Positions 2,040 to 16,460 of a stretch of 24,000 bases of DNA are shown here, one piece after another. A model generated the notes under the pieces. The model saw only the letters and a list, made by a program, of their open reading frames with translations, made no database searches and was not told the origin of the DNA. The position numbers and the translations under genes were made by a program. Each line of letters begins with the position of its first letter. The stretch's first letter is position 1. Source of the DNA: an uncultured Gammaproteobacteria bacterium (GTDB lineage: Bacteria > Patescibacteriota > Microgenomatia > PFEM01 > CAYPPS01); the NCBI GenBank assembly GCA_964655765.1, contig CAZZNI010000013.1, positions 616-24,615 of the forward strand. The letters run 5' to 3'.

Positions 2040-3608
2040 TTAATAACTAGGTGTATATGGCGGTGCCATTTTTATAATATTGCCCGCTGATTGAAATTCA
2101 TAGTGCAAGTGTGGTCCGGTGGAGTTACCGGTATTGCCGACATAGCCGATAATTTGGCCAATAGCAACTGATTGCCCGCTTTGTAATGAAGAGTTAAAAC
2201 CATCCAAATGGGCATAGAGAATGCTTAGCGGTTGGCCCTTACAAACGGTGGTGATTTTAACATAATTACCGTAGCCGGGGATTTCCCTGTCTAGGACAGG
2301 GTCGTATGCCGTGTCAACACCGAAGCTAAAAACACCATTAGCAGTTGCTTTAATAGGGGTTCCGATAGTAGCCGCAATGTCTATCGCTTCGCGATTATAA
2401 TGAGTGGTTCCGGCAGAATTATTTGGCCGTTGTGTAATGGTGCCTTGAACTGGCCAGGTGGCTACTGGGCAGCCGGTTTTAGGGGTGCCGATAATGATAG
2501 CCAAATTATCAAACGAAATTTGCTCTAGAGCGGTTTGTTCTTGGCTGGTTTTGTCGGTAATTAAAGCTGTGGCGTTAACCGAAACCTGGTTTGCCAGCAT
2601 TGCATCTTGAAATTTTTCAATCGGAGCAGTTGGTATTTCGTATTGCGGAGAAGTCCAACTATTGCCATTCGGCAGATCGGGAATTTCTCCTGATTGCCAA
2701 CTTAAATCGGAGGCAATATATTCGCCCATTTCCTGGTAGGAAGAAGTTAGGTCAAAGGCGGTAAGATTAGTTAAATCGGCGCCGGTTGCGGTAATGGTGA
2801 AACTGTAAACAAAACTGGTGTTATTTTTAATTTTGTCATTGTCAATGCTTTGACCATCACTGATTGGTGTTTGTGCGCCGTTTTCATCAACAAAAAAAGC
2901 TTGTTTTTTGACACTAATATATTGTGACTTTTCTTGCCAGGGGGATAAGCGAGTGGCGCCGGGGACATAAAAAGCCGAAGCAAGAGTAATGATAGTGATA
3001 GCTCCGGTGCCGGCAATTGCGGCAATTGACCCAAAAGTTGGAGTAGCAATAATGCCGGTGCCGATTTCCATTGAGGTAATTTGCGTAAAAACACCGGAGA
3101 GGAAATTAGCCGGTTGTTGAAAAGCCAGGCTAAAACCTTTGCCGGCTAGTGTGCCGATAAAACCGACTGCTTTACTGCCCAGATGAGCGATTGTCGAAGC
3201 GGCCATAAATGATCCGCCGCCAACAATCAAAACTGTGCCTATCCCGCCGCCAATCAAAATCCCTATCGGAAGCATAATCATCCCAGCAGCAGCGTAGAGT
3301 GTTTTATCGGGTCTTTTTAAAGCCTTTTTAAGTTTAATCAAGGCCCAGCTACCGACTTTCTCTAAAACAGTTAAGGCAGCGGCGATTAATTTACTGGTCC
3401 CTTCAGGAAGACCAGTCAAAATCCCCTTAATAGAAGTTAAAACTGTTTTTAAGCCGGCTTTTTTAGCCAACTTGACGGCAGTTTTTTTACCTTGTTGTTT
3501 TAAAACCCCACTGGCTTTACTACTACCAAGGCTGAACAGTTTTTTAAAAAAAGACGGTTTTTTAATCGGTTGGTTTTGATTTTCCTGTTGGTTATTTTCC
3601 TGGTTCAT
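2040..3608 (-). CDS. membrane-anchored M23 (LytM-type) metallopeptidase, probable T4SS-associated peptidoglycan hydrolase
   Basis: The C-terminal M23 signature is HYNREAIDIAA (HxxxD) ... GNTGNSTGPHLHYEF (HxH). The N-terminal half is Gly/Ala/Ile-rich with several predicted TM helices (MIMLPIGILIGGGIGTVLIVGGG, IAAIAGTGAITIITLASAF). I place the start at ATG 3608 (MNQENNQQ...), preceded by GAGGA 8 nt upstream. The listed start at 3755 would add 49 aa running through the VirB4 3' end. The gene overlaps VirB4 by 17 nt. Confidence 0.85.
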   Translation of the reverse strand: MNQENNQQENQNQPIKKPSFFKKLFSLGSSKASGVLKQQGKKTAVKLAKKAGLKTVLTSIKGILTGLPEGTSKLIAAALTVLEKVGSWALIKLKKALKRPDKTLYAAAGMIMLPIGILIGGGIGTVLIVGGGSFMAASTIAHLGSKAVGFIGTLAGKGFSLAFQQPANFLSGVFTQITSMEIGTGIIATPTFGSIAAIAGTGAITIITLASAFYVPGATRLSPWQEKSQYISVKKQAFFVDENGAQTPISDGQSIDNDKIKNNTSFVYSFTITATGADLTNLTAFDLTSSYQEMGEYIASDLSWQSGEIPDLPNGNSWTSPQYEIPTAPIEKFQDAMLANQVSVNATALITDKTSQEQTALEQISFDNLAIIIGTPKTGCPVATWPVQGTITQRPNNSAGTTHYNREAIDIAATIGTPIKATANGVFSFGVDTAYDPVLDREIPGYGNYVKITTVCKGQPLSILYAHLDGFNSSLQSGQSVAIGQIIGYVGNTGNSTGPHLHYEFQSAGNIIKMAPPYTPSY

Positions 3609-5478
3609 TTTGTTTTTCCTCTTGAGCGGCTGTTTTTTCTTGTCTTTCCAGCATCTCTTTTGGCTTAGTGGTGACAAGTTTGTGCTCTTCAGGAGAAGCG
3701 ATGATTCGCAAAGCAACATGATTGGGGCCAGCGAAAAACAAACCTTCGCCAACATCGGCCGAAAGCAATAAGTGTTTTTCTCCCTCGGATAGATAAAAAA
3801 CTTCGGTCAGTTGGTCGATGGCTGCCGGTGACTGTTTCATTAATAATTGCAGCGAAGAGTTGTTGATGATTTCCCGGCCCATTTGGACATTTTGCAGTTT
3901 AACACTCAAGAAATCTTCAACATCTTGAGTAATAGTGGTTACTCCAAGGTAGTATTTTCTGGCCCGTTTGGCGATAGAGGTTAAAAACAGCGCCGAATCA
4001 GGGTGACGCATCATATACCAAGCTTCGTCAACGACCATAATGCGCTTTTTTAATTCTTTTCTGATTCTGGTCCAGATAAAGTCAAGGACAATAAACATAG
4101 CAATTGGCCGCAGGGATTGTTCTAGGTCGCGGATAGAAAAAACAGTAAATGGATTTTTAATATCAACATTAGAATGCTGGTCAAAAATGCCGGCAAAAGA
4201 GCCTTTGACAAACTTTTCCAGTCGGTCTGCTAAGCCTCTGGCCAGTGGATCCTCCATTCCCTGCAAGGCCTTGTAGAGATCTTCCATCAGCGGCGGCTCT
4301 TTTTTTTGAGTTGCCGGATCAGGGGTAATGCCTTTCATTTTGTAAGTTAAAGCCAGTGCTCGGTCAAGTAAAGCCATTTCACTCGGGTTCATGTCGCCCA
4401 TAATGACCTTAAACAGAGAGTGGAGAGAAAGAATTTTTTGGTTAAGTTCGTTTTGGCCTTCTTCGTAGACAGCTGATAAATCAAAGGGGTTAATTTTGGC
4501 TTCAGAGTTAAAGCCGAAGGTGATATATTCGCCGCCAACTGCTTTACAAAGCGTTTCATATTCGTTTTCCGGATCGATAACCAGTATTTCAGTATCAAAC
4601 ATTAATGATCGCAAGATTTCCAGTTTAACGGCATAAGATTTACCGGCTCCGGCTTTGGCAAAGACAACCGAATTGGCGTTTTCTAAATTAAAACGGTCAA
4701 AAATAACCAGTGAGTCGTTGTGTTCATTAATTCCGTAAAGGATTCCTTCATTAGCGGTCAGTTCAGACGAGGTAAAGGGGAAAGTGGTAGCCAGAGAGGT
4801 GGTGTCCATATTTCTGGTAATCATCAGTCTGTCAATACTAGTTGGAATGGTGGCTTTAAAAGCTTCTTCCATTTGCAAGGTGGCGTTTTTGGCGATAATC
4901 ATTAACGAGCCCAAAAGTGACGAAACTTGTTTGGTGGTATGGTTAAGTTCTTCTAAATTGTCAGCCGGGATAGTAATATAGAGAGCAAATTGGAAAAACC
5001 GCTCTGAGCCCTTAACTAACTGCGCTTGGAGTTTTTTGGCGTCTTCCAGCTTGGCAACGGTTGCCGGATTAAGCACTTTACCGCGTTCAACATCAATTTG
5101 AATTTCTGCTTCCATTTCAGCAATTTTTCGTCTTAAGTCATCCAAGACCCCTTTGCCTTCGATTGGATAAACAAACATGGAAACATCTAGTGAGTGGTCA
5201 AAATTAACCAGTGGCCCCAGCCAATTGGCAGAAACAAATCGGGGGTAGCCGGCGACGAAAAGAGTTCTGAAATAGCGGTTCCCGATTTTAAGATAATCAA
5301 AATCAACCTCGATAGCGGCCGGAGCAATAATATCTTTAACTGACAACATTCCCTGTCCCAGCTTGGCGACATTTTCTTCAAAACTAGGCTGTCCTGGTTT
5401 ATTTACCGGTTGATTAACCTGGTTTTGATTTGGTTTAACTGCCGGCTTTTTTTTCTTAAAAGGATTTACTAGTTTCAT
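3592..5478 (-). CDS. virB4: VirB4/TrsE/PrgJ-family T4SS ATPase
   Basis: 628 aa. Walker A is FAKAGAGKSYAV (around 4631-4665) and Walker B is RIMVVDEAWYMM (around 4018-4042), followed by GVTTITQD. The N-terminal pattern IAPAAIEVDFDYLKIGNRYFRTLFVAGYPRFV...WL is typical of monoderm VirB4 homologues. There is an ATGA start/stop overlap with the upstream gene at 5475-5478. Confidence 0.9.
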   Translation of the reverse strand: MKLVNPFKKKKPAVKPNQNQVNQPVNKPGQPSFEENVAKLGQGMLSVKDIIAPAAIEVDFDYLKIGNRYFRTLFVAGYPRFVSANWLGPLVNFDHSLDVSMFVYPIEGKGVLDDLRRKIAEMEAEIQIDVERGKVLNPATVAKLEDAKKLQAQLVKGSERFFQFALYITIPADNLEELNHTTKQVSSLLGSLMIIAKNATLQMEEAFKATIPTSIDRLMITRNMDTTSLATTFPFTSSELTANEGILYGINEHNDSLVIFDRFNLENANSVVFAKAGAGKSYAVKLEILRSLMFDTEILVIDPENEYETLCKAVGGEYITFGFNSEAKINPFDLSAVYEEGQNELNQKILSLHSLFKVIMGDMNPSEMALLDRALALTYKMKGITPDPATQKKEPPLMEDLYKALQGMEDPLARGLADRLEKFVKGSFAGIFDQHSNVDIKNPFTVFSIRDLEQSLRPIAMFIVLDFIWTRIRKELKKRIMVVDEAWYMMRHPDSALFLTSIAKRARKYYLGVTTITQDVEDFLSVKLQNVQMGREIINNSSLQLLMKQSPAAIDQLTEVFYLSEGEKHLLLSADVGEGLFFAGPNHVALRIIASPEEHKLVTTKPKEMLERQEKTAAQEEKQNEPGK

Positions 5479-6482
5479 GGCTGGTTGTCTCCGTTCGGTT
5501 TTTGGCCGCCTTGATTAATAATTTGATCAATTTGATTGTAAATTGTTTCTGAAGAGGAGCCAATTTTATTTAAATTGGCCTCGTCTTTAGGCGCTTCGAT
5601 ACCAATAATTTCCCGTCGTTTTTCTTCTTCCATCTGTTCTTTTGGGCTGACCATCGGTAATGGATTGGCCGTGGTTGGCTGAGTGGCTTCAGTTGGCGCG
5701 CTTGGAGTGACCGGCGGGCTTGGTGGAGTAGCTGGTAGGGCTGGCTCCGGCGGCTTAATATCCTTTTTAACCATTGGCGTTTGGTTGTCGTCAAGGCTTT
5801 GTCGTAGTGAAATTTCTGTCATTGGTGTTTGATATTGTTCCGGTTCAACTACTTGCTGGCCGACTGATTCGGGGTTGTAAATGTTAAAAAACAACTGGAT
5901 TAATTCCCTGGTATTAAGCTGGAAGCCTTTTAGTCCTAAACGGGCCAATAAGCGTAAAATGTGGTCTTTTTTAGGGATCAGGTTAATTTTAGCTTTTTTT
6001 AAAACATACTCTTTATCGAAGGAAGTTTTTTTATTTTGCTGTAACTTGTTAGACAGTGTTTTACTAATTCCCATTTCCAGAGCAGTCATGGGAATAGTGA
6101 TGTAAAACTTCTTGTCTAAAACTTGGTTTTTTTGAACAGTTTCTTGGATAAAGCGGCTGTAGAGTTTAATTTGCTGTTTAACCTCTTCTTTTTCCTGTTT
6201 TTCTTCGGCCGTTTTTAACAGTCTTAAATAAGCGGAGATGTCTTTCCTTTGTGAGCGGATAATGATTTGAATTGAAAAATTAAGCGAATTAAGCAAGCCG
6301 GCATAAGCAAAAATAGTCGCTTCCTGTTCTTGTTCGGAAAGTAAGTCAAAGTTTATGGCGGTAGTGGCTATTACCAGACAAGCACCGCCATCTTTTAAAA
6401 TGACAATGTCGTCTTGGATATCTTCAATATCAAGGTGTTGTTGAGTGGAAGCACGAATGGCAACTTTTAACGGTTCAGTCAT
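5475..6482 (-). CDS. hypothetical soluble protein with a VirB4-N-terminal-domain-like head and a Pro/Thr-rich tail
   Basis: 335 aa. Its ATG at 6482 directly abuts the TAA of the PrgI-like gene (TAAATG). The N-terminal segment HLDIEDIQDDIVILKDGGACLVIATTAINFDLLSEQEQEATIFAYAGLLNSLNFSIQIIIRSQR has the same pattern as the VirB4 N-domain. The low-complexity tail is PPEPALPATPPSPPVTPSAPTEATQPTTANP. There is no TM helix and no Walker motif. Confidence 0.6.
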   Translation of the reverse strand: MTEPLKVAIRASTQQHLDIEDIQDDIVILKDGGACLVIATTAINFDLLSEQEQEATIFAYAGLLNSLNFSIQIIIRSQRKDISAYLRLLKTAEEKQEKEEVKQQIKLYSRFIQETVQKNQVLDKKFYITIPMTALEMGISKTLSNKLQQNKKTSFDKEYVLKKAKINLIPKKDHILRLLARLGLKGFQLNTRELIQLFFNIYNPESVGQQVVEPEQYQTPMTEISLRQSLDDNQTPMVKKDIKPPEPALPATPPSPPVTPSAPTEATQPTTANPLPMVSPKEQMEEEKRREIIGIEAPKDEANLNKIGSSSETIYNQIDQIINQGGQKPNGDNQP

Positions 6483-7442
6483 TTAATTTTCGGCTCTTAT
6501 TTCAATCGGGGGAATGATTTCTCCCTTGGCTTCAATTTTGATTATAGCAAAGCTTAACGCTTCTTTTTCGGTTTCGATTTCATAAACACCGTTTTGAAGA
6601 GGGGTGACAATTAAAAACTGTCCCAACTGGTTGGTTTTTAAAGCCCTGATCGGAATACCTTGTTCATTCCTGATTTCTAAAATGGCACCTTCAACCAGGT
6701 TGCCTCGTTTATCGGCGACCATGCCAGTCAAAATATTTGGCTGACTGGGAGTTTTTGGGATCGGCAATTTGGTGTTAATGGTGGCGTCAACTGTTTGAGA
6801 TTGATTAGTTTCCGGCCGTTTTTCCGGCTGGCTGAGTGGTTTAAAAACATTTGGGCTAAAGCCCGGGGCAAAATCATTTTGAGGATTGGTTGTTGAAGTG
6901 GCGGTTGTTGTTGGTGGGACAAGCGGTTTTGGCTTGGGTGGTTCAACAACGGTATTGGGATCGAAAAGGCGGCCGATTTGAGCCAGCTGGTTTTTTTCAA
7001 TTTCATCCAGTGGGCTGATATGGTCTCGGGGCAGTGACTGTAAATAACCAGATAGGTCGGCTTGGCCCTTGGGGGCGGCTTGTTTTGATCTAAGCTGGGC
7101 CATCTTAATATCCTTTTGTGGCAAGTAAGTTAAAAAGGCAGGGTAATGCTGCTGTTTTTGCCAAGTAAAAAGAGTTGGTCTGAAGGCGGCTTTGAAAAAA
7201 GCCACCAACCAGACGGAAAGGGGCCGTTCTTGGAAAGGGAAAAAAGCCAAGGCAACCCCCAAAACAGCAAAACCGATAACCGCCGGCCATTTAAAGTAAA
7301 ACGGCAAACTGGTAGCGTAAAAGAAAAATGCCAAAACCAAACCGCCGGCCAAGTAGCCGAATTGTTTTAAAGTCATCTCGCCAACTAACTTAAATTCATA
7401 AGAGGCGATATGCTGTGGTACCGGATGTTGTTTAACGGGCAT
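6483..7442 (-). CDS. PrgI/VirB3-like membrane protein fused to a Pro-rich linker and a C-terminal CarboxypepD_reg-like beta-sandwich
   Basis: The N-terminus PVPQHIASYEFKLVGEMTLKQFGYLAGGLVLAFFFY plus a second helix WPAVIGFAVLGVALAFFPF is the PrgI-family hallmark. The linker is EPPKPKPLVPPTTTATSTT. The C-terminal 83 aa (6486-6734), GMVADKRGNLVEGAILEIRNEQGIPIRALKTNQLGQFLIVTPLQNGVYEIE, match the G.V.D..G.P..GA.V....T...G.F....L..G.Y pattern. It is the first gene of the operon. Confidence 0.7.
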   Translation of the reverse strand: MPVKQHPVPQHIASYEFKLVGEMTLKQFGYLAGGLVLAFFFYATSLPFYFKWPAVIGFAVLGVALAFFPFQERPLSVWLVAFFKAAFRPTLFTWQKQQHYPAFLTYLPQKDIKMAQLRSKQAAPKGQADLSGYLQSLPRDHISPLDEIEKNQLAQIGRLFDPNTVVEPPKPKPLVPPTTTATSTTNPQNDFAPGFSPNVFKPLSQPEKRPETNQSQTVDATINTKLPIPKTPSQPNILTGMVADKRGNLVEGAILEIRNEQGIPIRALKTNQLGQFLIVTPLQNGVYEIETEKEALSFAIIKIEAKGEIIPPIEIRAEN

Positions 7443-7448
7443 TAGTTT

Positions 7449-7477
7449 ATTCTAACGGTAATTTCTTTTCGCTTCAA
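7449..7477 (-). promoter_or_regulatory. sigma70-like promoter for the prgI-like/virB4 operon, predicted leaderless
   Basis: The minus strand reads TTGAAG-17 nt-TAGAAT followed by 6 nt (aaacta) and then ATG at 7442. No SD is present. Confidence 0.4.
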
Positions 7478-7482
7478 CAAAG

Positions 7483-7510
7483 TTGAATTTTGCCCAAAGA
7501 ATGATATAAA
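7483..7510 (+). promoter_or_regulatory. sigma70-like promoter with extended -10 for the 655-aa gene, near-leaderless
   Basis: TTGAAT (7483-7488), 16 nt spacer, then TGaTATAAA (TG at 7502-7503, -10 at 7505-7510). The ATG at 7520 is 9 nt after the -10. There is no SD. Confidence 0.4.
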
Positions 7511-7519
7511 ATTCACACC

Positions 7520-9487
7520 ATGGACAACGAACCAGGCTTTTCTCCTGTTGAGGGAACGGAAAATTTAACTCCGGAGCAGCAGTTTGCTCAAAAAATAAAA
7601 GATCTTTCTGCACCAGAAGAAGGTGAAGCTGTTTTGACCCATCAATCTTTATTGACCGCCGCTAGATTAGCGTCTATGCCTCATGTTGCAAGAAACCCAA
7701 GGCTATTGGAAGGCTTGTTGACAAAAGTTACAGAAGAAGCTTTTGCTGTAAATCCAAATAGTCCTGGATGGCAAGAACGATACCTGACTGAATTAGCAAT
7801 TTTTGGCGGCGCTATTCAGGAGCAGGTGGACCAGTTAACGGCGGCAGATCGACTCGATCAAACGTCTCAACCGGATCCGCTCCAGCAAGGATTAGGTGAT
7901 TTGTTGACTGAGGTCCGTCGTCAAACGGATTTCCAAGAAGAAGCAATCCGGATTCAAAGAAATGAATTAGAATTACCAACAGACTTGGAACAACAACGAG
8001 TCTTTGTGAGGGAAAAACTGGGAGACATAGAACGAACAATCTATGATTGTTGGCATCTTGATATTGCCAGTACTGTGTCTCAGCTGGAATCAAGTTTGGA
8101 TAAAATGTACCCAGAGATACGCCGAGAAGCTCGGGCAAGAATCAATCTTCATGATTCAACAATGTTAATTAGGCAAGCTGGAGGATGGATAGAAAGACCG
8201 GAAAATATGACTGGCCTATCTATCCCAACCGCAGTTGACACAGCTCATAATCGAGATCACGATTTAACTAAAGATGTGATTATCTTCTTCTTGAGAGAAG
8301 TACATCCTGGCTTGGATGTTAAAAATGCCTGGGATTTATTGCAAAAAGCAAACTATGATTATAATTCCTTTGTCGAAGAAATTAATCTAACAAGATTAAG
8401 GGAATTGTTGACCCCCAGAGGGATAACTAGTCAAGAGATTGACAGGGTTTTTCGCTTACTAGCTACTCCAGCATCTCGACCACTGGCTGGAGACGGAGTT
8501 AATTTTACAAACAAACTTGGTCGATTATCAAACCGTGATAAGACATGGTTGTTGTCGATAATTACTGAAGATGAGATTAAAAGCCGTTTATTTTCAACCG
8601 GAGACAAAATCCCTTTTGATGATGAAGCTCAACTGGGAGCGGCCGAGGTTAATTATAGTAAAGATAACAACGAAGAACGAAAAAAAGCTGTTCGAAAATT
8701 TTTAGTCGAACAATTAGCAAGAAGCTATCTAGGCGGAGATATAGCTGCCGCGGCGAAATCCTTTGAATTAGCCGAAAAATTAGCCAGAGCAACCTTGGAG
8801 ACATCTGCCTATAATCGGATGGCTCAAGCCGGTAATGATCAATTAGCTGAAGCGCTTGGTTTTAAAGGTTGGAGAAAAGCACGAGTTGGCGGAGAAAAAG
8901 GTCGACCAGCCGGACCGTTAATTCATATTGACGGAATTGAATCAATCGGGACAACTTGGCTAAGAACATTGCTTAAGGATCGCTCCAGGCAATGGGAGAT
9001 TAAACAACCGGTGTTAACATCGGACATTGACTTTGATCAAATTACGCCGGACAGTTGGAATTTTTTTGGTACTGTGGTTGCACCGCAGTTTTATAGATTG
9101 AAAGGTTTATTTTTGGACAGAGCTCCTGACCCGAAGAAAATGGTTAAGAGGGATTATTGGGCTGACTTGATCGCTATAATTGATCGGGCCGATCCTAGGG
9201 AAAATCCGCAAGTTGATTATTGTGGCCCCAAAAAACTTCGGCCGCTCCTTGTAGCTGGAGTAATCGACATGGCTTTGGCAGACCCTGGGTTAGGGTGGAC
9301 GGCAACTGATATAGGCAACATGGAAAGAATCTTAACCGAAGAGACTGTTGCTGATGGCGGTAGGGCCTTTATGTCACAAAGCCAATGGAAAAAACTGGCA
9401 TCTACTTTGCAGATAAGTTCAAGAGTGATGTCTTTGGCTGCTGGTCAAGGGCTTCGGTCAAGTTTGGAAAAATCTCTTGGCCGTTAG
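7520..9487 (+). CDS. orphan 655-aa predicted cytosolic, largely helical protein of unknown function, embedded antisense in the T4SS-like locus
   Basis: It is a long uninterrupted ORF with no TM segment, signal peptide, Walker motif or other recognisable catalytic motif. By eye it uses more Arg relative to Lys than its neighbours. Its TAG stop (9485-9487) directly abuts a minus-strand TAA. Confidence 0.7.
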   Translation: MDNEPGFSPVEGTENLTPEQQFAQKIKDLSAPEEGEAVLTHQSLLTAARLASMPHVARNPRLLEGLLTKVTEEAFAVNPNSPGWQERYLTELAIFGGAIQEQVDQLTAADRLDQTSQPDPLQQGLGDLLTEVRRQTDFQEEAIRIQRNELELPTDLEQQRVFVREKLGDIERTIYDCWHLDIASTVSQLESSLDKMYPEIRREARARINLHDSTMLIRQAGGWIERPENMTGLSIPTAVDTAHNRDHDLTKDVIIFFLREVHPGLDVKNAWDLLQKANYDYNSFVEEINLTRLRELLTPRGITSQEIDRVFRLLATPASRPLAGDGVNFTNKLGRLSNRDKTWLLSIITEDEIKSRLFSTGDKIPFDDEAQLGAAEVNYSKDNNEERKKAVRKFLVEQLARSYLGGDIAAAAKSFELAEKLARATLETSAYNRMAQAGNDQLAEALGFKGWRKARVGGEKGRPAGPLIHIDGIESIGTTWLRTLLKDRSRQWEIKQPVLTSDIDFDQITPDSWNFFGTVVAPQFYRLKGLFLDRAPDPKKMVKRDYWADLIAIIDRADPRENPQVDYCGPKKLRPLLVAGVIDMALADPGLGWTATDIGNMERILTEETVADGGRAFMSQSQWKKLASTLQISSRVMSLAAGQGLRSSLEKSLGR

Positions 9488-9613
9488 TTAACTTAAGGGG
9501 AACTTATCGATTTCTTGTTTAGTTAAAAAAGTTTCTTCTTTTATAAAAACACCTGATTTACGATACTGAGCTTCTTGCCTCTTTTTCTTTTTTTTGTCCG
9601 TATTTTTGTTCAT
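9488..9613 (-). CDS. possible 41-aa Lys-rich small protein (not in the ORF track)
   Basis: Hand translation gives MNKNTDKKKKKRQEAQYRKSGVFIKEETFLTKQEIDKFPLS*. It lies 28 nt downstream of the VirB6-like gene on the same strand and fills an otherwise empty 154-nt gap. There is no convincing SD. Confidence 0.25.
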   Translation of the reverse strand: MNKNTDKKKKKRQEAQYRKSGVFIKEETFLTKQEIDKFPLS

Positions 9614-9641
9614 CTTAGTCTGTCAGTTGGCCAATAATCAA

Positions 9642-11393
9642 TTAAGTTGTATCAAAATCATCTGCTCCCAATGAGACTGTTCGTCCTCGTTCTTTGATTC
9701 GTCCGCCGGCAATTTTACCGCCAATATATTTAACCCCGCTTGATGCTGCCCCAAACGCTGCTCCCCCGGCCGCATCAGTGCCAGTTTTTACTGCACTAGC
9801 ACCAATTGCTCCCATCGGTCTGGCTATTGGAGATATAGCTTCGCCGAAGCCGGTGCCATATTTCCAGGGATTAACCTGAAGAGCATCTCTAATAATCTCT
9901 CCTGCTTTTGGAATAAGAAAGAATGTCCCAAAGCCCAATAAAGGGACTAAGCCGAAAGATAAAACCCCCCAACCACTGGCAAAAGCGCCTCTAAAAATTT
10001 CTTCGGTTGAAATTGATCTGACTCCGGCTATCAGGGCGTACATTTTGGTGACTAATTCGGCGCTCAAGATAGCACCGGCAGCCGGGGCGGTAACCGGGTT
10101 AGTTAATCCGAATATACCAGCAAAAAATCCCCAAGATTCTTTAAGAGTTTCAATAAAAGTGGCTCCTCCGTGCAATGGAACATAGGTAAGAAAAAAAGCA
10201 GACAGAAGAAACATTCCGAAAACTGTTGGCAAAACAGCAATATTGGCCAAGAGGTTTTTAAACCATTTACCAAAACCTGATTGCCCAGGGATAGCGCCTA
10301 GCGCCAATTGGAGTGGTCCAAAAATAACGGCAAAAACAATTTTAGCATAGGTGGTGATTAATAAAATTGAGATTCGAAGCATAGTATAAACGAGAGCGAT
10401 TAAAATAATTAAATTTAAAATAGGGACAGTCATAACTGCGGCAATGCTAGATAAAGCGCCAACTACCAGTGGGAAAATTGCGGCAAACAAGGCTAGTCCG
10501 ATTTGAGCTCCTTCTGGCAATTCATTGATTGTTGTAACAATAGTGTTAAAGTCTTCTGATTGGGTGATTGAAGACGAAAAAACCTCAAGCAGTAAAAACA
10601 TTACTACATAAGCAAGATCAAGCATAAAGCCGGCAATTGCGTAGGAGAAAGTAACCAATAGTAATGCCATAACTACTTGCGGTATGGCATTTTGAACTGA
10701 AATAATAGTTTGCGGATTAATCTTAACTCTGAACATAATCGCCAGGCCAATAAAAACAAAAATTAGAGCGAAAAAAAGATAGGCGACATTTCGGAAAGCT
10801 TTCCACAGCGGTAAAATCGGACTAAAACCGGAAAATCCAATTCCTTGAGGATTATCTTGGGCATAGGCGGTTTTGGAAAAGCCCATGTTTCTACCTATGT
10901 CGGCGACATAGTCAATTGAAGACACTGGTTGGTTGGTATAAGCAAGGGTAACCACCTTAACGGTATCTCCTAAGGCTCCGCCTGGGAAAGAAGCGTAGTA
11001 TTGTCCGTTGGTTGAGGCAAGGGCGGCTTTATATAAGTTTGGCCCGCCCAGAGATTCAGTTAGCCAATAAACCAGGGCGTCCATTGACCCAGTGGCGCCG
11101 TTGGGACTGGTTCTGGCGGTGCCAGCTATCCAGCCATCCAGATTAATTTCACCGGTTTGGACAGATTCTTCCAGGCTCCGTTTAATTTTAAAATTAGTGT
11201 TTGATTCCAGTAAATCGGGAGTGATATTTTGTGTTTCACTATAAAGATCAGTTTCGACATTGACATCATCTCGGTTGAAGATTGTTGCGGTGGCATCGGT
11301 CGACAATAGTTTGGCGGCAAATCCAATCGCCAAACAAAGCAAGGCAATTTTTCCAAAAGAAAGACTTTTAAATCTCGAATAGAAGAAGTTCAT
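9642..11393 (-). CDS. VirB6/TrbL-like polytopic membrane protein
   Basis: 583 aa. It has an N-terminal anchor (IALLCLAIGFAAKLL), then about 180 aa of extracytoplasmic domain, then at least 6 long hydrophobic helices (for example YLFFALIFVFIGLAIMF, LNLIILIALVYTMLRISILLITTY, VLPTVFGMFLLSAFFLTYV), and a Gly/Ala-rich C-terminal tail. The size, topology and position beside pilin genes fit VirB6/PrgH/TcpH-type channel subunits. Confidence 0.6.
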   Translation of the reverse strand: MNFFYSRFKSLSFGKIALLCLAIGFAAKLLSTDATATIFNRDDVNVETDLYSETQNITPDLLESNTNFKIKRSLEESVQTGEINLDGWIAGTARTSPNGATGSMDALVYWLTESLGGPNLYKAALASTNGQYYASFPGGALGDTVKVVTLAYTNQPVSSIDYVADIGRNMGFSKTAYAQDNPQGIGFSGFSPILPLWKAFRNVAYLFFALIFVFIGLAIMFRVKINPQTIISVQNAIPQVVMALLLVTFSYAIAGFMLDLAYVVMFLLLEVFSSSITQSEDFNTIVTTINELPEGAQIGLALFAAIFPLVVGALSSIAAVMTVPILNLIILIALVYTMLRISILLITTYAKIVFAVIFGPLQLALGAIPGQSGFGKWFKNLLANIAVLPTVFGMFLLSAFFLTYVPLHGGATFIETLKESWGFFAGIFGLTNPVTAPAAGAILSAELVTKMYALIAGVRSISTEEIFRGAFASGWGVLSFGLVPLLGFGTFFLIPKAGEIIRDALQVNPWKYGTGFGEAISPIARPMGAIGASAVKTGTDAAGGAAFGAASSGVKYIGGKIAGGRIKERGRTVSLGADDFDTT

Positions 11394-11441: not shown

Positions 11442-14408
11442 TTATGGACAGTACTGTTGAGAAATGATTTGGCTTTCCTGGCTGTTTGGATTAAGAATGC
11501 CTTTGGAAACACATTGTTTGGCTTTTTCGATACCGCCAAGGTAAGGGAAGTAAAAATCACCCTTGCCGGGATTAGCTTGTGAGCTCTCATTCATTAGTTT
11601 TTGCTCTTTATCGGAAGCAATGGAGCTGTTGGAAATTTTGCCTTGATAAGAATAGCCAACGGTGCTTTTGGCATTGTCGTCTGGATAGGAGTCCATATCG
11701 GCCGGGCGGAAAATATCAAAAACTCCTCTTTGGTTCCCGCCTGAATAGGAATCACCGATGGTGTAATCGCGAATTTTACCAAGAACAGGAATTTGAGTGT
11801 CAATACCCATCTTTCGATAAAGAATTAACGGGTTATAATCGCCGTATTTGCGCCAACGGCACTCTTCTTTACATCTTTCTCTTTCATCCTGCTGGTCGGC
11901 TCTAGGGTATTTATCGCGGCACTTGTCGATACATTTATTTAGATCGGATAAAAGTTTAGTTAATTGTTTTTGGCTTAAGGTAGCTCGGTAATCAGTGGCG
12001 GTCATCACTGTTTCAATTGGATAAGGACTGGCGCAAATCGGATCGTTGGGGTTGATATCAGTAATAGCATCCATTTTGCAGGTGGGAGGAGTATAACGGT
12101 CAGGGTTTTTGCAAAGATTAGTCGGCGTGCTTGTTGGCGCTCCAATACTGGAGCAAGAAGTACTGGTTATTTCTCCGGTTGCCAAGTCAACTTTTCCCTG
12201 ACATTGGTAGTTAGTTTCTCGGATTACCTGGTCGTCAGTGTGAATATGGGGATTAAAAACAGTAACTGTTATGGTAAAGTTGCCGTTTTCATCAACTTGG
12301 GCTGGTAGTAGTCGGGAAGCGTGATTGGGGTCGGTGCTGTCGTAGTAACCTGGTGTTCCACCAGAATCGTCGAGGTTCCCGCCGTTGGCGGCAAACCAGA
12401 TGTGCATGCCAGCTTGTGCCGGACCGGTTAGTCCTTCAATGCGGATGCCGTAGTCAATCGTATTTGTTGCTGAGTTGTACCTAATATTTTCTACTCCAAC
12501 CTGGTAGGCGTATTGAGGTTCGTCGTTCGTTTCTGGTTCTGCGGTGGTGTTGGCTTGGGCCAATTGAACTGTTTCTCCTAAAGCCAATTTGTAGCCGCAG
12601 TAGCTGCTTGATTGAGCTAGTTCTTGGTCAATTTCTTTCCCATTTGGGGCGGCGACAATTACTCCTGGATTGGTAGTTTCAGAGGCGACAAGCCCTTGTT
12701 GTGCAAATTCTGGCATCAGGTGTTTATTTAATTCTTGAGTGGCTTGATAAATGGTTGCCAGATGAGGGAATGAAAGCTGGTAATTTGTGATTGATAGTTG
12801 TCCTGGTGTTCGTTGTACTTGTAGAGTTAAAGTTCCAGGAGCGTCTTTGAGTGTTGTTAATGGAATGTACGGCCACAATTTAGCCCAATCACTGCCAAGC
12901 CAAACTTCGTATTCAGCCAACCAGGCTTCCATTTCAAGTTGATAAGCCATTCGTTTTGTTTCGCTGGCGCCAGGGTCAGGATATTTTGGCTCAGTACAAG
13001 GGGTGTTTTTGAACCGGCCTTTGAATTCGGCTAACTTTTTCGGCTTCGGCAGGTGGGGGTTATCCTTAAATGGAATTTGATAATTTTCGTTTGGGTCGAT
13101 AAGAGCGGTTTCAATCATCTTACAACGCAAGACATCTTGGTATTCCGGGCTGAAAAGCTTACTCATGACTCCGGCTTGCGCTTTAGCTTCTTTATTAAAT
13201 TCTTCGCTACCAACTGGGTTTTGCGGTCCTTTGCCGACCAGCGATCCGGTAAAGTAGCGGGCGAGATATTTTGATTCTTGGTTTAACGGCGGGAAATTAT
13301 AATAGCCGACAAAAGGGACGGTAGTACTGGTGATATCTAGTTCAGCTACTCCGCCCCAAGTTCTTTCGAAATAGGCAACATTTTGTTGATCGTCGCGATC
13401 ATCCGGACAATACTTAAGTTCGCTGGCATCTTCGTCCCAGCCATGAGGGCCGTTACCTTCGTGGATATAAAACCAGGTGTCTTGTTCCATAACAAAAGTT
13501 TCGGCACAGGCCTTAATTGGTTCCTTAACTTCTCCACCGCAATCTTTACAGGCAGCCGGTCTATAAACTCCGGGCTTAGCGGCCGGGTTTTGACAAGTCA
13601 ACGGCGGTGGGGTGGGGGTGATAATGGTGGGCGGCATATTAAGGATAGCCAATAATTCTGGCGGTAAAGGATTAAGATCGGGGTTTAAGAGCCACCATTC
13701 TAACCAACGAGGGTCTTTAAAAGCACCGGTGTCGCGAATAGCGACAAATAATTCGTCTCTTGCGGTGCCGATTCGTTGTCCGGCGTCTAGCGCTAACATG
13801 AAAGTTCGGCCGGTTTCGATTGCTTGATGATACATATCAACAATCGACTGGTCGACATTAAAGTTTTCAAGATAAACAGTGTATCCGCTAACAATATCGT
13901 CCTCAGCAGTGAATTTGAGGGTAATTCCGTTTTCGTCAGCATGTAAAACAATCGCGTTGTAGCCACCACCAATGTCATAATCAGCCCAAGGAACATTAAC
14001 TTCTGCTCCAGGAGTGATATTAAAACCAACATAAGTTGCCCCGGTTCCTTCGTGGTCGGCCCAAGAAGCTGGGTGATCATTTTCAGTTGGGTTAAGATTG
14101 GCAACAGATGTGACAGTTGGAGTGGTTCCGTTCCAATCGGGTGTTAAGGTTAGAAGTTGCGGCGCGCCAGGGTCAGTGTCGTGCTCAAAAGGATATACTT
14201 GGCGATTGTCATTATCAACCAGGGTGTAAGTGTACTGGTCAATATTATATTCAGGATTATCGTCAACATAACAATCAGTGTAGTCGCCGGTAGCAGGATC
14301 ACAAGCAGCCAGTAAATTAAGCGGGGAAAAGTTTTTGGCAAACAATAGTCCAATAACAACAATGGAAAGAAAGAGGATTAGTTTTTGTGAAGCTGTTATT
14401 TTGGACAT
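11442..14408 (-). CDS. 988-aa N-terminally anchored, cysteine-rich surface protein; candidate adhesin or pilus-tip factor
   Basis: I place the start at ATG 14408 (MSKITASQKLILFLSIVVIGLLFAKNF), which removes the overlap with the upstream pilin gene that the listed 14468 start creates. There is a single N-terminal hydrophobic helix. I counted about two dozen Cys, several in clusters (CDPATGDYTDC; CQNPAAKPGVYRPAACKDCGGEVKEPIKAC; CKNPDRYTPPTCKMDAITDINPNDPIC; CIDKC...CKEEC). I recognise no enzymatic motif. Confidence 0.75.
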   Translation of the reverse strand: MSKITASQKLILFLSIVVIGLLFAKNFSPLNLLAACDPATGDYTDCYVDDNPEYNIDQYTYTLVDNDNRQVYPFEHDTDPGAPQLLTLTPDWNGTTPTVTSVANLNPTENDHPASWADHEGTGATYVGFNITPGAEVNVPWADYDIGGGYNAIVLHADENGITLKFTAEDDIVSGYTVYLENFNVDQSIVDMYHQAIETGRTFMLALDAGQRIGTARDELFVAIRDTGAFKDPRWLEWWLLNPDLNPLPPELLAILNMPPTIITPTPPPLTCQNPAAKPGVYRPAACKDCGGEVKEPIKACAETFVMEQDTWFYIHEGNGPHGWDEDASELKYCPDDRDDQQNVAYFERTWGGVAELDITSTTVPFVGYYNFPPLNQESKYLARYFTGSLVGKGPQNPVGSEEFNKEAKAQAGVMSKLFSPEYQDVLRCKMIETALIDPNENYQIPFKDNPHLPKPKKLAEFKGRFKNTPCTEPKYPDPGASETKRMAYQLEMEAWLAEYEVWLGSDWAKLWPYIPLTTLKDAPGTLTLQVQRTPGQLSITNYQLSFPHLATIYQATQELNKHLMPEFAQQGLVASETTNPGVIVAAPNGKEIDQELAQSSSYCGYKLALGETVQLAQANTTAEPETNDEPQYAYQVGVENIRYNSATNTIDYGIRIEGLTGPAQAGMHIWFAANGGNLDDSGGTPGYYDSTDPNHASRLLPAQVDENGNFTITVTVFNPHIHTDDQVIRETNYQCQGKVDLATGEITSTSCSSIGAPTSTPTNLCKNPDRYTPPTCKMDAITDINPNDPICASPYPIETVMTATDYRATLSQKQLTKLLSDLNKCIDKCRDKYPRADQQDERERCKEECRWRKYGDYNPLILYRKMGIDTQIPVLGKIRDYTIGDSYSGGNQRGVFDIFRPADMDSYPDDNAKSTVGYSYQGKISNSSIASDKEQKLMNESSQANPGKGDFYFPYLGGIEKAKQCVSKGILNPNSQESQIISQQYCP

Positions 14409-14415
14409 AATGTTT

Positions 14416-14796
14416 TTATGTTCCAGGGATTTCAAAGACAGTAACCTTGATGCCGGTAAAGCTTTCAATTAACAGCAAAATAAACCAAGAGATGATTATT
14501 AAGGCCAGGCCAAAAATAGCGTAAGTGAGAGTTTTTTGCGCCCCAGCGGCTTTTTCCGGGTCGCCGCCGGCAGTAAGATACTTAATGCCGCCAACCAGTA
14601 ACATAATAAAAACAGCCAGACCGGCAAAACGCAAAGCATAATTAAAAACAATTTGAAAAACACAGCCAATATCCTGAAGAGTTGCTGCATCGTTTTTGGC
14701 TGTGTCACTCCAACAATCATTACCTGCTGCACAGGCAACAGGTAAATTAGTGACAAATAGAACCGGTAACAGTAAAACCGCAATTATTTTTTTCAT
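14416..14796 (-). CDS. T4SS pilin-like (VirB2/TrbC-type hairpin) paralogue P7, with cleavable-looking signal peptide
   Basis: I place the start at ATG 14796 (AGGA lies 9 nt upstream). The listed 14904 start overlaps the previous gene. The signal peptide is MKKIIAVLLLPVLFVTNLPVACAA. The core is FAGLAVFIMLLVGGIKYLTAGGDPEKAAGAQKTLTYAIFGLALIIISWF, that is TM1, charged loop, TM2. Confidence 0.8.
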   Translation of the reverse strand: MKKIIAVLLLPVLFVTNLPVACAAGNDCWSDTAKNDAATLQDIGCVFQIVFNYALRFAGLAVFIMLLVGGIKYLTAGGDPEKAAGAQKTLTYAIFGLALIIISWFILLLIESFTGIKVTVFEIPGT

Positions 14797-14822
14797 TTTC
14801 TTAAATCCTAACAACCAGGCCG

Positions 14823-14858
14823 GCCACATTAACGGCAAGCCTAGGTTGTTAATGTGGC
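14823..14858 (-). promoter_or_regulatory. perfect 11-bp stem / 14-nt loop hairpin 5 nt downstream of the P6 stop
   Basis: GCCACATTAAC (14823-14833) pairs with GTTAATGTGGC (14848-14858). In the minus-strand RNA the hairpin is not followed by a U-tract, so it looks like a stabiliser, attenuator or processing element rather than a canonical intrinsic terminator. Confidence 0.4.
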
Positions 14859-14863
14859 TACAT

Positions 14864-15253
14864 TTATTGTGTAGGCGGTTGAACCTTTGGAATTTGAAGA
14901 CCACTAATGATTTTTATACCAAGGAAGGTTTCAACGATTCCAATTAATGCCCAGGTTGAAAAAACAATTGCCAGTCCAATAATTGCCGCTGTTAAAGTAC
15001 TTTGAGCTGCAGCGGTTTGTTCTTTATCGCCACCAGAGGTGATCCACTTGATACCACCGTAAATTAAAAAGAAAAAGGCGACTAAACCGGCTATAGCCAA
15101 CACTAGAGTTACTAGTCCTGAGATAATACTGGGGACAGTTAAGCTTACGGCGCCGGCAAACTCCGTTGATGGTGTCAGCGTGATTGCTTGGCCAGTGATT
15201 GCTGACTCTTGGGCATATATCGGACTTGAAATTAAGTTTAAAATTTTATCCAT
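14864..15253 (-). CDS. T4SS pilin-like paralogue P6, candidate major pilin
   Basis: 129 aa. The core is LVAFFFLIYGGIKWITSGGDKEQTAAAQSTLTAAIIGLAIVFSTW. It has a strong SD (AGGAGGGAGGTGA) in a 5' UTR behind its own consensus promoter. Confidence 0.85.
   Translation of the reverse strand: MDKILNLISSPIYAQESAITGQAITLTPSTEFAGAVSLTVPSIISGLVTLVLAIAGLVAFFFLIYGGIKWITSGGDKEQTAAAQSTLTAAIIGLAIVFSTWALIGIVETFLGIKIISGLQIPKVQPPTQ
15001..15080. repeat. 80-nt near-identical segment shared with 15498-15577 (copy 1, inside P6)
   Basis: By hand alignment 78 of 80 nt are identical. The two differences (15047 c/t, 15056 a/g) are synonymous. The flanking coding sequence of the two paralogues is clearly more diverged. 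Confidence 0.9.
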
Positions 15254-15292
15254 TTTTTTCTTTCACCTCCCTCCTGGTTATTATTAGTCATG

Positions 15293-15322
15293 ATTATAAG
15301 TAAAGTTGTAAAACAAAGTCAA
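15293..15322 (-). promoter_or_regulatory. near-consensus sigma70 promoter internal to the pilin array, driving P6
   Basis: The minus strand reads TTGACT (15322-15317), 18 nt spacer, then TATAAT (15298-15293). The -35 starts 2 nt after the P5 stop, and a roughly 40-nt leader carrying GGAGGGAGG follows. Confidence 0.5.
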
Positions 15323-15324
15323 TT

Positions 15325-15729
15325 TTATTTCAAAGTTCCGTATTGGTCGTAATATTGACCAGCTGGACTTCTCGGACCGCTTGGTAAGCTGGAATTTATA
15401 TCGTTACTGTTTAGACCGAAAAATCCTGTTACCAAATTTAGAATCGCCCAGGCGGAAAAAGCCAGTGCTAGGCCAATGATAGCAGCGGTCAAGGTTTTTT
15501 GAGCTGCAGCGGTTTGTTCTTTATCGCCACCAGAGGTGATCCATTTGATACCGCCGTAAATTAAAAAGAAAAAGGCGGTAAGAGCGGCAACAACCAAAAC
15601 TAAGTCAATAATAGCGGTGATTAAGGTTTGTAGATTATAGTCGTCGCTTGCCTGTCTTATTGGAGAGCCGATTGTGTTTAGGGCTTCACCGATGTTGCTG
15701 CTGGTGGCTTGGAGTAGAAATAAATTCAT
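15325..15729 (-). CDS. T4SS pilin-like paralogue P5
   Basis: The first ATG is at 15729 and forms an ATGA overlap with the P4 stop. The listed 15744 start is a TTG. The core is LTAFFFLIYGGIKWITSGGDKEQTAAAQKTLTAAIIGLALAFSAW. There is a polar C-terminal tail (SSLPSGPRSPAGQYYDQYGTLK). Confidence 0.8.
   Translation of the reverse strand: MNLFLLQATSSNIGEALNTIGSPIRQASDDYNLQTLITAIIDLVLVVAALTAFFFLIYGGIKWITSGGDKEQTAAAQKTLTAAIIGLALAFSAWAILNLVTGFFGLNSNDINSSLPSGPRSPAGQYYDQYGTLK
15498..15577. repeat. 80-nt near-identical segment shared with 15001-15080 (copy 2, inside P5)
   Basis: See copy 1. The segment encodes FFFLIYGGIKWITSGGDKEQTAAAQ in both genes. Confidence 0.9.
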
Positions 15730-16079
15730 TGCAATGTTGGCCAAGGAATATCTAATGTTCGCAAGAATTCTATTCCCAAAAAGCCGCCAACAAAATCAAG
15801 GATAATCGTGGCAACGGCGATCAGGGTAAAGCCAATGATACCAGTCATTAATCTCTTTTGGGCTGCCTTAACTTTCTCTGCGTCGCCGCCGGCAGTAATC
15901 CATTCCAGCGCTGCCCAAAGAATCATAAACAGCAAGGCGATACCGCCGATGATTAAAATTATTGTCATTAATTTGGCCAAAAAAAGTGCCAGGATATTAG
16001 CTCCTTGGCTGGTTGCGCCTGGTTCACAAGTTTCCGGGACTAGTGGATTACAAATAGCAGCGTAAGCCTTTTTTACCAT
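15726..16079 (-). CDS. T4SS pilin-like paralogue P4
   Basis: 117 aa. The ATG at 16079 overlaps the P3 stop by 7 nt. The core is IALLFMILWAALEWITAGGDAEKVKAAQKRLMTGIIGFTLIAVATI. There is an N-terminal Cys pair (AAICNPLVPETCEPG). Confidence 0.8.
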   Translation of the reverse strand: MVKKAYAAICNPLVPETCEPGATSQGANILALFLAKLMTIILIIGGIALLFMILWAALEWITAGGDAEKVKAAQKRLMTGIIGFTLIAVATIILDFVGGFLGIEFLRTLDIPWPTLQ

Positions 16080-16459
16080 AAGTTGCCGATTAAACCTTCT
16101 AAGTCCAAAAAGTCGATTCCTAAAATTAAACTAATTAGAGAGATTAAAGTAAAAGCGCCGATGACTATTACTAAGCCAACCAGGCTTTGGGTCATTTTTT
16201 TAGTACTGTTTTTGACAGCTTCTTCGTTGCCGGCAGAAACCACCATTCCAACTGCGGCAATCATGAAATTAAAAATAAACCATAAACCAGCAACAATAGT
16301 CATTATCCCAATAACGGTAGAAATGATTCGGCTTAAATCACCTACCGAACCGAGTCCGTCAAAAGCACCGGCGTCGGAAAAGGGTCCTAGGCCGGAATCT
16401 GGTGGCCCACCGATAAGACCCAAATCTTTGTCAGCTAAATAAACTTTATTTTTAATCAT
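16073..16459 (-). CDS. T4SS pilin-like paralogue P3 (divergent loop)
   Basis: I place the start at ATG 16459 (AGGAAG lies 6 nt upstream, and the ATG is 1 nt after the P2 TAA). The listed 16555 start runs through P2. The core is IVAGLWFIFNFMIAAVGMVVSAGNEEAVKNSTKKMTQSLVGLVIVIGAF. The N-terminal region is Gly/Asp-rich. Confidence 0.7.
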   Translation of the reverse strand: MIKNKVYLADKDLGLIGGPPDSGLGPFSDAGAFDGLGSVGDLSRIISTVIGIMTIVAGLWFIFNFMIAAVGMVVSAGNEEAVKNSTKKMTQSLVGLVIVIGAFTLISLISLILGIDFLDLEGLIGNLW

Positions 16460-16460
16460 T

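Follow-up and report, generated by a model that had tools for sequence, protein, structure and literature searches.

A previously undescribed family of predicted helical proteins linked to the VirB6-like and pilin genes of the type IV secretion locus of Microgenomatia

Results

Gene layout of the locus

The window analysed here is a stretch of 24,000 nucleotides on contig CAZZNI010000013.1 (assembly GCA_964655765.1, positions 616 to 24,615). It belongs to a 705-kb metagenome-assembled genome (MAG) of Patescibacteria (Microgenomatia), which comes from sludge, consists of 35 contigs and is 96% complete; the DNA of the window recurs in several sludge metagenomes. The window carries a type IV secretion system (T4SS) locus, in which the gene for a 655-aa protein lies antisense to its flanks, being divergent from a PrgI-like gene and convergent with the gene of a polytopic 583-aa membrane protein. 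An earlier note made from the sequence alone had described this ATG-to-stop open reading frame (ORF) and its orientation, and both were borne out. The 655-aa protein very probably belongs to a previously undescribed family of genuine, cytoplasmically synthesised, all-alpha proteins, whose gene would be a fixed accessory gene of the chromosomal, monoderm-type (MPF-FATA-like) T4SS of Microgenomatia. The genes and signals of the locus are as follows (window positions).

2040-3755, minus strand: M23 peptidase
3592-5478, minus strand: VirB4 (TraG P-loop match, 9e-28)
5475-6482, minus strand: TrsD-like gene (profile match to TrsD)
6483-7442, minus strand: PrgI/VirB3-like gene (Pfam PrgI, 1.1e-6), the divergent upstream neighbour and first gene of the PrgI-TrsD-VirB4-M23 unit (2040-7442)
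7483-7512, plus strand: promoter-like site, with TTGAAT at 7483-7488, a 16-nt spacer and the extended -10 element TGaTATAAA at 7502-7510
7520-9487, plus strand: coding sequence of the 655-aa protein, stop codon included; an ATG-to-stop ORF supported by its family, by purifying selection and by the AlphaFold2 (AF2) model
9488-9641, no strand: tail-to-tail spacer between the 655-aa gene and the VirB6-like gene (3-194 nt in orthologous loci)
9642-11393, minus strand: convergent partner, the polytopic 583-aa membrane protein, VirB6-like by its transmembrane profile and adjacent in 27 of 27 loci
11442-17131, minus strand: the rest of the module that travels with the 655-aa gene, namely a 1008-aa N-terminally anchored protein and seven T4SS_pilin genes

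On the left, beyond the M23 gene, the minus strand continues with a gene for a bitopic 339-aa protein and then with dnaN. With its position near dnaN, VirB4, TrsD, PrgI/VirB3, an M23 hydrolase, a VirB6-like polytopic protein, an array of VirB2-like pilins and no relaxase in the locus, the arrangement is like that of the patescibacterial MPF-FATA-like T4SS (Quinonero-Coronel et al. 2025, PMC12102498), including SEML1_0006-0019 of Southlakia epibionticum (Wang et al. 2023, PMC10633639). In Southlakia, unlike in the window, the genes directly after PrgI are extended VirB6-like genes on its own strand, and an antisense soluble gene is absent. The 2025 survey lists homologues of known T4SS profiles only (PMC12102498), and the 655-aa family is mentioned neither there nor in PMC10633639 nor in the review PMC12857230.

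The GC content of the 655-aa gene (0.43) and its relative synonymous codon usage (RSCU) distance (0.40) were inside the range of the neighbouring genes, so that this comparison, which the earlier note had proposed as a check, gave no sign of a foreign origin. In the spacer at 9488-9641, no terminator or RNA structure was detected (z-score 0.67). A 108-aa ORF runs antisense within the 655-aa gene (7812-8138, minus strand) and is probably spurious. Many public MAG records with this T4SS locus (L068, L070, L072-L077, L115 and others among our loci) are titled 'uncultured Gammaproteobacteria bacterium', 'Candidatus Bathyarchaeia archaeon' or 'Nevskiaceae bacterium', and are evidently mislabelled.

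Promoter and mode of transcription

The 655-aa gene had been credited with its own TTGAAT-16-TGaTATAAA promoter and no Shine-Dalgarno (SD) sequence. Both features are present: the -10 element TGaTATAAA ends 9 nt 5' of the ATG, and no SD sequence precedes it. A generic promoter scan at this gene did not rise above shuffled sequences (5 sites vs 4.3), and the backing came from the comparison of orthologues instead. A TATAAT-like -10 element, often in the form TGnTATAAT, was found close 5' of the start in about 20 of the 27 orthologues (exact TATAAT in 15), and an SD-like motif preceded the start in just two. Because the -10 element recurs and SD motifs are rare across the orthologues, a leaderless reading with a promoter of its own is supported. 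The sequence implies that the mRNA of the 655-aa gene would be leaderless or near-leaderless, and separate, leaderless transcription is supported as a probable conserved trait of the family.

Family and distribution

The 655-aa protein had been regarded as an orphan. A word-index homology search returned its self-match alone, which proved misleading when set against an exhaustive search: phmmer against 1.84 billion representatives recovered 133 cluster representatives at E<=1e-3, 40 of them at E<=1e-30, and the protein is no orphan. Most of the 133 representatives are 500-900 aa long (148-1289 aa when fragments are counted), and all of the named ones are listed as 'hypothetical protein' from Patescibacteria. 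None of the 133 has an N-terminal hydrophobic segment, and two have any hydrophobic segment at all. A profile of the family, which recognises the 655-aa protein with E = 4e-161, matched 32 of 401 genomes sampled within Microgenomatia; among 401 genomes sampled across the phylum it matched none outside this class. Each genome holds one family gene, double matches being pieces of one open frame, except for a second contig fragment in one genome (G043). Members range from 526 to 1443 aa in length through N-terminal extensions, and no known domains were found in the long extensions.

These data bear on the idea that the gene is a recently acquired foreign gene or a spurious ORF. The word-index search without a homologue and an unusual Arg/Lys ratio (see below) would fit such an origin, but the 133 representatives, a class-wide synteny, GC and codon usage like those of the neighbours, dN/dS values well below 1 and the presence of the DNA in several sludge metagenomes leave it with almost no probability, and it was rejected.

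Conserved synteny with the VirB6-like and pilin genes

Up to 20 kb was fetched around 20 matches and combined with the earlier loci, which gave 27 loci with a flank present. In all 27, the homologue was immediately convergent (3-194 nt) with a homologue of the polytopic 583-aa gene. Beyond the polytopic gene there is usually a large variable gene and then, where the contig reaches, the pilin array. The PrgI-TrsD-VirB4 unit is found on the 5' side in some lineages alone (the window, L010, L011, L016, L050, L060, L061 and L067). In the GTDB family f34, which is rich in members of the protein family, the VirB4 module does not lie within 9 kb, and the gene is still with the polytopic/pilin module. 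In a genome of the same genus as that of the window, the N-terminus of the homologue is located at a contig end, divergent from PrgI.

Given that the adjacency is fixed across loci, also where the VirB4 module lies elsewhere, the 655-aa gene is, to judge from gene order, an ancestral member of the VirB6-like/pilin module. The earlier note had pictured it as inserted between, and splitting, two halves of the locus. Neither description holds: the gene occupies the same place and orientation in relatives class-wide, with GC content and RSCU in the range of its neighbours, and it keeps to the VirB6-like/pilin module in lineages whose VirB4 module is elsewhere. What stood, and was strengthened, is the tie of a large soluble protein of unknown fold to a secretion locus, since its orthologues were always found embedded there (27 of 27 loci).

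Several other features of these loci were observed. At the f34 locus L048, the divergent 5' neighbour is a DUF6909 protein (7326-9029, minus strand; E = 1e-166) instead of PrgI, and a C-terminal SLT lytic-transglycosylase domain is present in the large gene (13087-15660, minus strand) that separates the VirB6-like gene from the pilins and takes the position of the 1008-aa protein of the window. The VirB4 gene of L016 (1278 aa; 2151-5987, minus strand) contains an intein (Intein_splicing + LAGLIDADG_3) within the ATPase.

The VirB6-like partner was also considered. Even when searched as a 36-member profile, the polytopic 583-aa protein had no Pfam or PDB sequence match, in agreement with the 2025 survey, which remarks on the difficulty of detecting VirB6 in Microgenomatia (PMC12102498); the label 'VirB6-like' is taken from its topology and position and should be read as putative. 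The polytopic family has the invariant residues A177, Q178, R200, R221, Q233, S249, Y250, G254, D258, P359 and W376. The 655-aa family was less conserved than this partner in 161 of 185 locus pairs.

Positional analogues in other Microgenomatia loci

A detectable family member was present in two of 80 further Microgenomatia VirB4 loci. Among these 80 loci, those with the polytopic gene and PrgI on one strand and within 9 kb carry a large antisense ORF convergent right after the polytopic gene, the exceptions being L118, L119 and L132, which have another gene order. These positional analogues are about 560-1450 aa long, have no or one hydrophobic segment, and fall into many unrelated-looking clusters. 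Comparison with the family gave nothing significant by hmmsearch --max, phmmer or jackhmmer, and the best hhalign probability was 32%. In 11 of 27 positional analogues, a single hydrophobic helix resembling a tail anchor was found at the extreme C-terminus, which suggests that these proteins may be tail-anchored and face the cytoplasm.

The slot proteins of the Gottesmanbacteria type (975-1423 aa) end in such a single hydrophobic helix (L103 758-4348, L104 2154-5732, L106 2881-5808, L117 490-4761, L120 408-4271 and L128 788-4849, all on the minus strand). In L103, L106, L117 and L128, a Gly/His-rich tail such as GGGGHGGGGHH comes after the helix and has the look of a short, metal-binding-like external tag.

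Sequence features and predicted structure of the 655-aa protein

The hydrophobicity profile of the 655-aa protein showed no hydrophobic segment, no transmembrane segment and no signal peptide, and the five or more transmembrane helices by which VirB6/TrbL proteins are recognised are absent. A motif search found no Walker A, HUH/HxH, HExxH or CxxC motif. The protein matched nothing in Pfam, NCBIfam, PHROG or the PDB sequences. With regard to a relaxase, no Pfam or NCBIfam match was obtained for the 655-aa protein, none among the 60 members scanned with Pfam and no fold match in the PDB. The motif and profile scans thus agree with the earlier note, which had seen no transmembrane segment, signal peptide, nucleotide-binding motif or nuclease/relaxase motif. 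Its impression of Arg richness relative to Lys could be put in figures: R/(K+R) is 0.61, vs 0.11-0.42 in the neighbours, and lies in the top 2.3% of the 438 ORFs (>=200 aa) of the genome.

AF2 supplied with the 133-sequence family alignment gave a model with a mean predicted local distance difference test (pLDDT) of 87.5 and a predicted TM-score (pTM) of 0.80. Residues 150-655 are mostly above 95 pLDDT, and the model is all-alpha except for one hairpin. Models made by AF2 without the alignment (pLDDT 41) and taken from the ESM Atlas (0.43) were poor and gave no usable neighbours. According to the alignments and the AF2 model, the protein can be divided as follows.

7520-7969, plus strand: N-terminal variable region, aa 1-150, helical (occupancy about 0.55, low conservation, pLDDT 38-77)
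7970-8344, plus strand: conserved block A, aa 151-275 (Q159, L167, E171, E203, R207, G222, G264, A270), by alignment, pLDDT >95
8345-8644, plus strand: lineage-variable insert, aa 276-375, in a minority of members (occupancy 0.09-0.48)
8645-9409, plus strand: conserved block B, aa 376-630 (D382, K413, A418, E427, N432, D440, E444, R452, G465, R482, G580, W593, F617), by alignment; dN/dS 0.03-0.16 in orthologue pairs, pLDDT mostly >95
9410-9484, plus strand: C-terminal helix and basic tail, aa 631-655, net charge +3

In long family members, the region of aa 1-150 is replaced by extensions of 450-800 aa. The sole beta-hairpin of the model (aa 363-376) is held in the insert region. E171, R207, G465, R482 and F617 are near-invariant in the alignments and all present in the 655-aa protein.

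Foldseek found nothing significant in the PDB (best E 0.065, TM-scores <=0.22) or in BFVD (best E 0.043). The non-significant top PDB matches, namely alpha-solenoids (beta-catenin, importins, condensin HEAT subunits) and 14-3-3, are noise, and an ARM/HEAT solenoid was recognised neither by a significant structural match nor by a repeat family in Pfam. On present evidence, the model represents a confidently predicted fold with no solved relative. Since the AF2 model is confident, the core would be a folded body and not a disordered signal.

One candidate activity was tried and dropped. The stretch E-T-S-A-Y-N...G-N-D-Q-L-A-E (aa 427-444) resembles the SLT pattern 'ES..N...G..GLMQ', and phage proteins bearing SLT domains topped the BFVD list, pointing to an SLT/lysozyme. 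No Pfam SLT match was found at E up to 10, no SLT chain was among the 50 listed best PDB fold matches, and the SLT-bearing BFVD matches were non-significant (E >=0.04, TM about 0.1).

The solenoid-like matches are also relevant to the proposal that the 655-aa protein is a stand-alone equivalent of the hydrophilic (ARM-like) domains of extended VirB6, which would be fused in Saccharimonadia and encoded by a separate gene beside a short VirB6-like protein in Microgenomatia. Extended VirB6 has been noted in a review of T4SS nomenclature (PMC12857230). In Southlakia, SEML1_0011 (998 aa) and SEML1_0013 (1088 aa) are VirB6/TrbL-like with a C-terminal 'ARM repeat' ECOD assignment and have no antisense gene beside them; the VirB6-like protein of the window is short (583 aa) and always beside the helical protein, and the top Foldseek matches, non-significant as they are, are alpha-solenoids. 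The two arrangements are alike in that a large helical non-membrane module is genetically coupled to a VirB6-type polytopic protein. They differ in that the 655-aa module is a separate convergent gene; the comparison with SEML1_0011/0013 is at the level of their annotation. Given that the Foldseek matches are at the level of noise, that the family profile matched nothing outside the class in the sample across the phylum, and that a convergent orientation is unlike the remnant of a simple gene fission, we consider this equivalence improbable.

A regulator, or another cytoplasmic function joined to the T4SS by a genomic link only, was considered as well. Control of pilin/VirB6 expression by convergent transcription would be one example: the gene has its own conserved promoter, and the tail-to-tail spacing to the VirB6-like gene, often 3-50 nt, would allow 3' overlap or transcriptional interference. 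However, no DNA-binding, helix-turn-helix (HTH) or sensor domain was detected in the 655-aa protein or in the scanned family members, the protein is acidic (net charge -15), a conserved core of 500 aa with a novel fold is large for this purpose, and no structure was detected in the spacer. A regulatory role is therefore unlikely.

Evolution of the core and of the N-terminal region

In two pairs of congeners (L048/L049 and L051/L054), the last four fifths of the protein were 53-92% identical with dN/dS of 0.03-0.2, identity in the core being 64-92%, and the first fifth was 27-29% identical with a dN of about 0.85-0.9; these ratios are rough because dS is saturated (above 1). The coding sequences indicate that the core of about 500 aa (blocks A + B) is under purifying selection. 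The same-genus homologue was 37.5% identical over aa 3-72. Relative to an order-level relative (G014), identity was 21-27% for the 655-aa protein, 25% for the bitopic 339-aa protein, 29% for M23, 28% for the VirB6-like protein and 76% for VirB4; thus, in this comparison most other machine parts evolve about as fast as the 655-aa protein.

A basic C-terminal tail and the possibility of a translocated substrate

The charge of the last 25 residues was determined for the 125 members that cover the C-terminus. The mean net charge was +4.5, and it was positive in 97% of members, vs an average of -0.44 per 25 residues in the remainder of the family proteins; the tail mean was reached by 1.8% of all 25-residue windows in family proteins. 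Many tails consist of a Gly-rich stretch with K/R at the end. Because the members are related, the 97% does not amount to 125 independent observations. In the proteome of the window genome, the last 25 residues have a mean of +1.2, and values of +3 or above occur in 33% of ORFs. The tail of the 655-aa protein itself (+3) is therefore nothing unusual, and the weight of the argument lies in the conservation of the tail within the family.

A positively charged C-terminus is a hallmark of substrates of VirB/D4 systems, as in Agrobacterium (VirE2/VirF) and in the Beps of Bartonella. A net positive charge in the C-terminal 20-30 residues was found here as well, weakly so for the 655-aa protein when compared with its proteome. 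The C-terminal charge signal that the earlier note had suggested looking for is thus present family-wide, and it fits both a substrate and an adaptor. If the protein is a translocated core substrate, a T4CP-like (type IV coupling protein-like) ATPase or VirB4/TrsD would engage its C-terminal core and basic tail and pass it to the T4SS, for export to the cell surface or into a host bacterium, where the N-terminus would act. Several observations are in line with this. The protein has no Sec signal or transmembrane segment and is acidic overall with a positive tail; the N-terminal fifth diverges between congeners far more than the core; length varies through N-terminal extensions; and the family evolves faster than the VirB6-like protein in most pairs. 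The gene also lies on the strand opposite to the machine genes, and the antisense slot of Gottesmanbacteria-type loci also holds a T4CP-like ATPase, an arrangement resembling that of substrate-processing genes in conjugative elements. Like VirE2/VirF and the Beps, the family is cytoplasmic, without a Sec signal, net-positive at the tail and variable in its N-terminal part.

Other properties are at odds with a substrate. Unlike in VirE2/VirF and the Beps, the conserved part is a well-folded core of about 500 aa, not a short tail or a BID/XVIPCD-type domain of about 100 aa, and is far larger than any known T4SS signal. The strictly single gene per genome in a fixed position is more typical of machine parts, and the charge argument suffers from the relatedness of the members and the ordinary tail of the 655-aa protein. 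In addition, the T4CP homologue of Southlakia is reported to be non-essential while the T4SS is essential (PMC12102498), which weakens a route through a T4CP signal. Translocation of the 655-aa protein is thus a candidate function, less likely than not and slightly less probable than the accessory role discussed below.

Coupling protein of the window genome

The earlier note had suggested that the 655-aa protein functionally replaces a missing coupling component. Indeed, a Pfam scan found no T4CP gene inside the T4SS locus of the window. However, the 655-aa protein lacks a Walker A motif and any other NTPase motif, and it shows no similarity to the coupling-protein profiles PF02534, PF10412 and PF12696. 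A search of the window genome with PF02534 gave nothing, and PF10412 and PF12696 both matched a 782-aa ORF on contig C5 (TrwB_AAD_bind + TraG-D_C). This C5 ATPase is of the TrwB/TraG type and has an N-terminal hydrophobic/transmembrane anchor. It shares 33% identity over 732 aa (E = 4e-135) with T4CP-like proteins that other Microgenomatia encode inside their T4SS locus. T4CP-like homologues were present in 10 of 10 family-carrying genomes tested: a transmembrane-anchored type (57-70% identical) in 9 of 10 and a soluble paralogue (31-36%) in 9 of 10. The window genome appears to hold the transmembrane-anchored type alone. To judge from these matches, the coupling component is unlinked, not missing, and because a transmembrane-anchored homologue is encoded elsewhere in the genome, the 655-aa protein need not replace it. 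The replacement is effectively refuted as stated, and we regard it as very improbable.

In Gottesmanbacteria-type loci, a soluble T4CP-like ATPase (about 728 aa, TrwB_AAD_bind + TraG-D_C, no N-terminal transmembrane segment) is antisense between the VirB6-like gene and PrgI. It was observed at L103 5760-7958, L106 5846-8032, L117 5389-7575 and L120 5659-7836 and at L128, L133, L137 and L146 (all on the minus strand), together with small ORFs of 184-264 aa. By sequence comparison, it is a paralogue of the transmembrane-anchored type found elsewhere in most genomes. We had considered that the anchors might be complementary, a soluble T4CP going with a tail-anchored slot protein and a transmembrane-anchored T4CP with the soluble 655-aa type. 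This idea was abandoned, as 9 of the 10 family-carrying genomes tested also encode the soluble T4CP, which is a distinct paralogue. On contig C5 (L151; 8769-11117 minus, 11477-14908 minus and 7791-8654 plus strand), the only T4CP-like gene of the window genome adjoins a ribonucleotide reductase gene split by a LAGLIDADG-domain intein, and an XerC/D-type integrase gene.

Discussion

Taking the above together, we tentatively favour, with a probability that still falls short of even, the view that the 655-aa protein serves the VirB6-like protein and the pilin-assembly module as a cytoplasmic accessory subunit, be it an adaptor, a gate or an assembly platform. Four observations were counted for it: one gene per genome at a fixed adjacency, loyalty to the VirB6-like module when the locus is split, a large folded core, and the tail-anchored analogues. 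In such a mechanism, the protein would act on the cytoplasmic face of the membrane together with the VirB6-like polytopic protein and the pilin-assembly module. The core of about 500 aa (blocks A + B) would be the docking body, and the basic, often Gly-rich C-terminal tail may hold the protein at the anionic membrane surface or at a partner. The N-terminal region would form a fast-evolving arm of variable length. Because the gene is transcribed separately from its own promoter, the leaderless extended -10 promoter could set the dosage independently of the flanking structural operons.

Three points weigh against an accessory subunit. First, a translocated substrate would account equally well or better for an N-terminus so variable among congeners and for a basic tail on a protein that is otherwise acidic. 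Second, the cultivable Saccharimonadia system of Southlakia (SEML1_0006-0019) has no such antisense gene, so that the 655-aa family is not a universal requirement of patescibacterial T4SSs. Third, the positional analogues have no detectable similarity to the family (hhalign <=32%, nothing by phmmer or jackhmmer), and for this reason their tail anchors may be uninformative on the 655-aa protein. The accessory subunit and the translocated substrate are close rivals, and the evidence separates them poorly.

For an accessory subunit, the cytoplasmic accessory subunits of the T4SS coupling complexes of the Dot/Icm system, DotY/DotZ and IcmSW-LvgA, which are soluble and lineage-restricted, would provide a precedent. 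The 655-aa family would be like them in being soluble, on the cytoplasmic side of a T4SS and restricted to a lineage; unlike them, it is linked to a VirB6-like gene, with the T4CP unlinked in the window genome, and no homology or fold match to them was detectable.

Epibiotic growth requires the patescibacterial T4SS in the one species tested, and the system lacks a relaxase and has no known substrate or function (PMC10633639, PMC12102498, PMC12857230). It is possible, though less likely than not, that the family is the first identifiable cytoplasmic client of this system, a core substrate or translocator exported into or onto a host bacterium, in which core and tail would serve as the export handle and the N-terminus would be host-specific. 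If true, this would be a concrete answer to what the relaxase-less T4SSs, essential in Southlakia, transport. The finding is of limited value in so far as Microgenomatia have not been brought into culture and the gene is missing from the Saccharimonadia, which can be cultivated.

The 655-aa family is a component absent from the published T4SS inventories, found in one class alone among the genomes sampled and genetically locked to the VirB6-like/pilin module, and it can serve as a marker to locate VirB6-like genes of Microgenomatia, which otherwise escape detection. With its basic tail, hypervariable N-terminus and leaderless promoter, it may be either a cytoplasmic partner of the channel/pilus-assembly platform or a first candidate cargo, and either role would advance the question of how the patescibacterial T4SS works.

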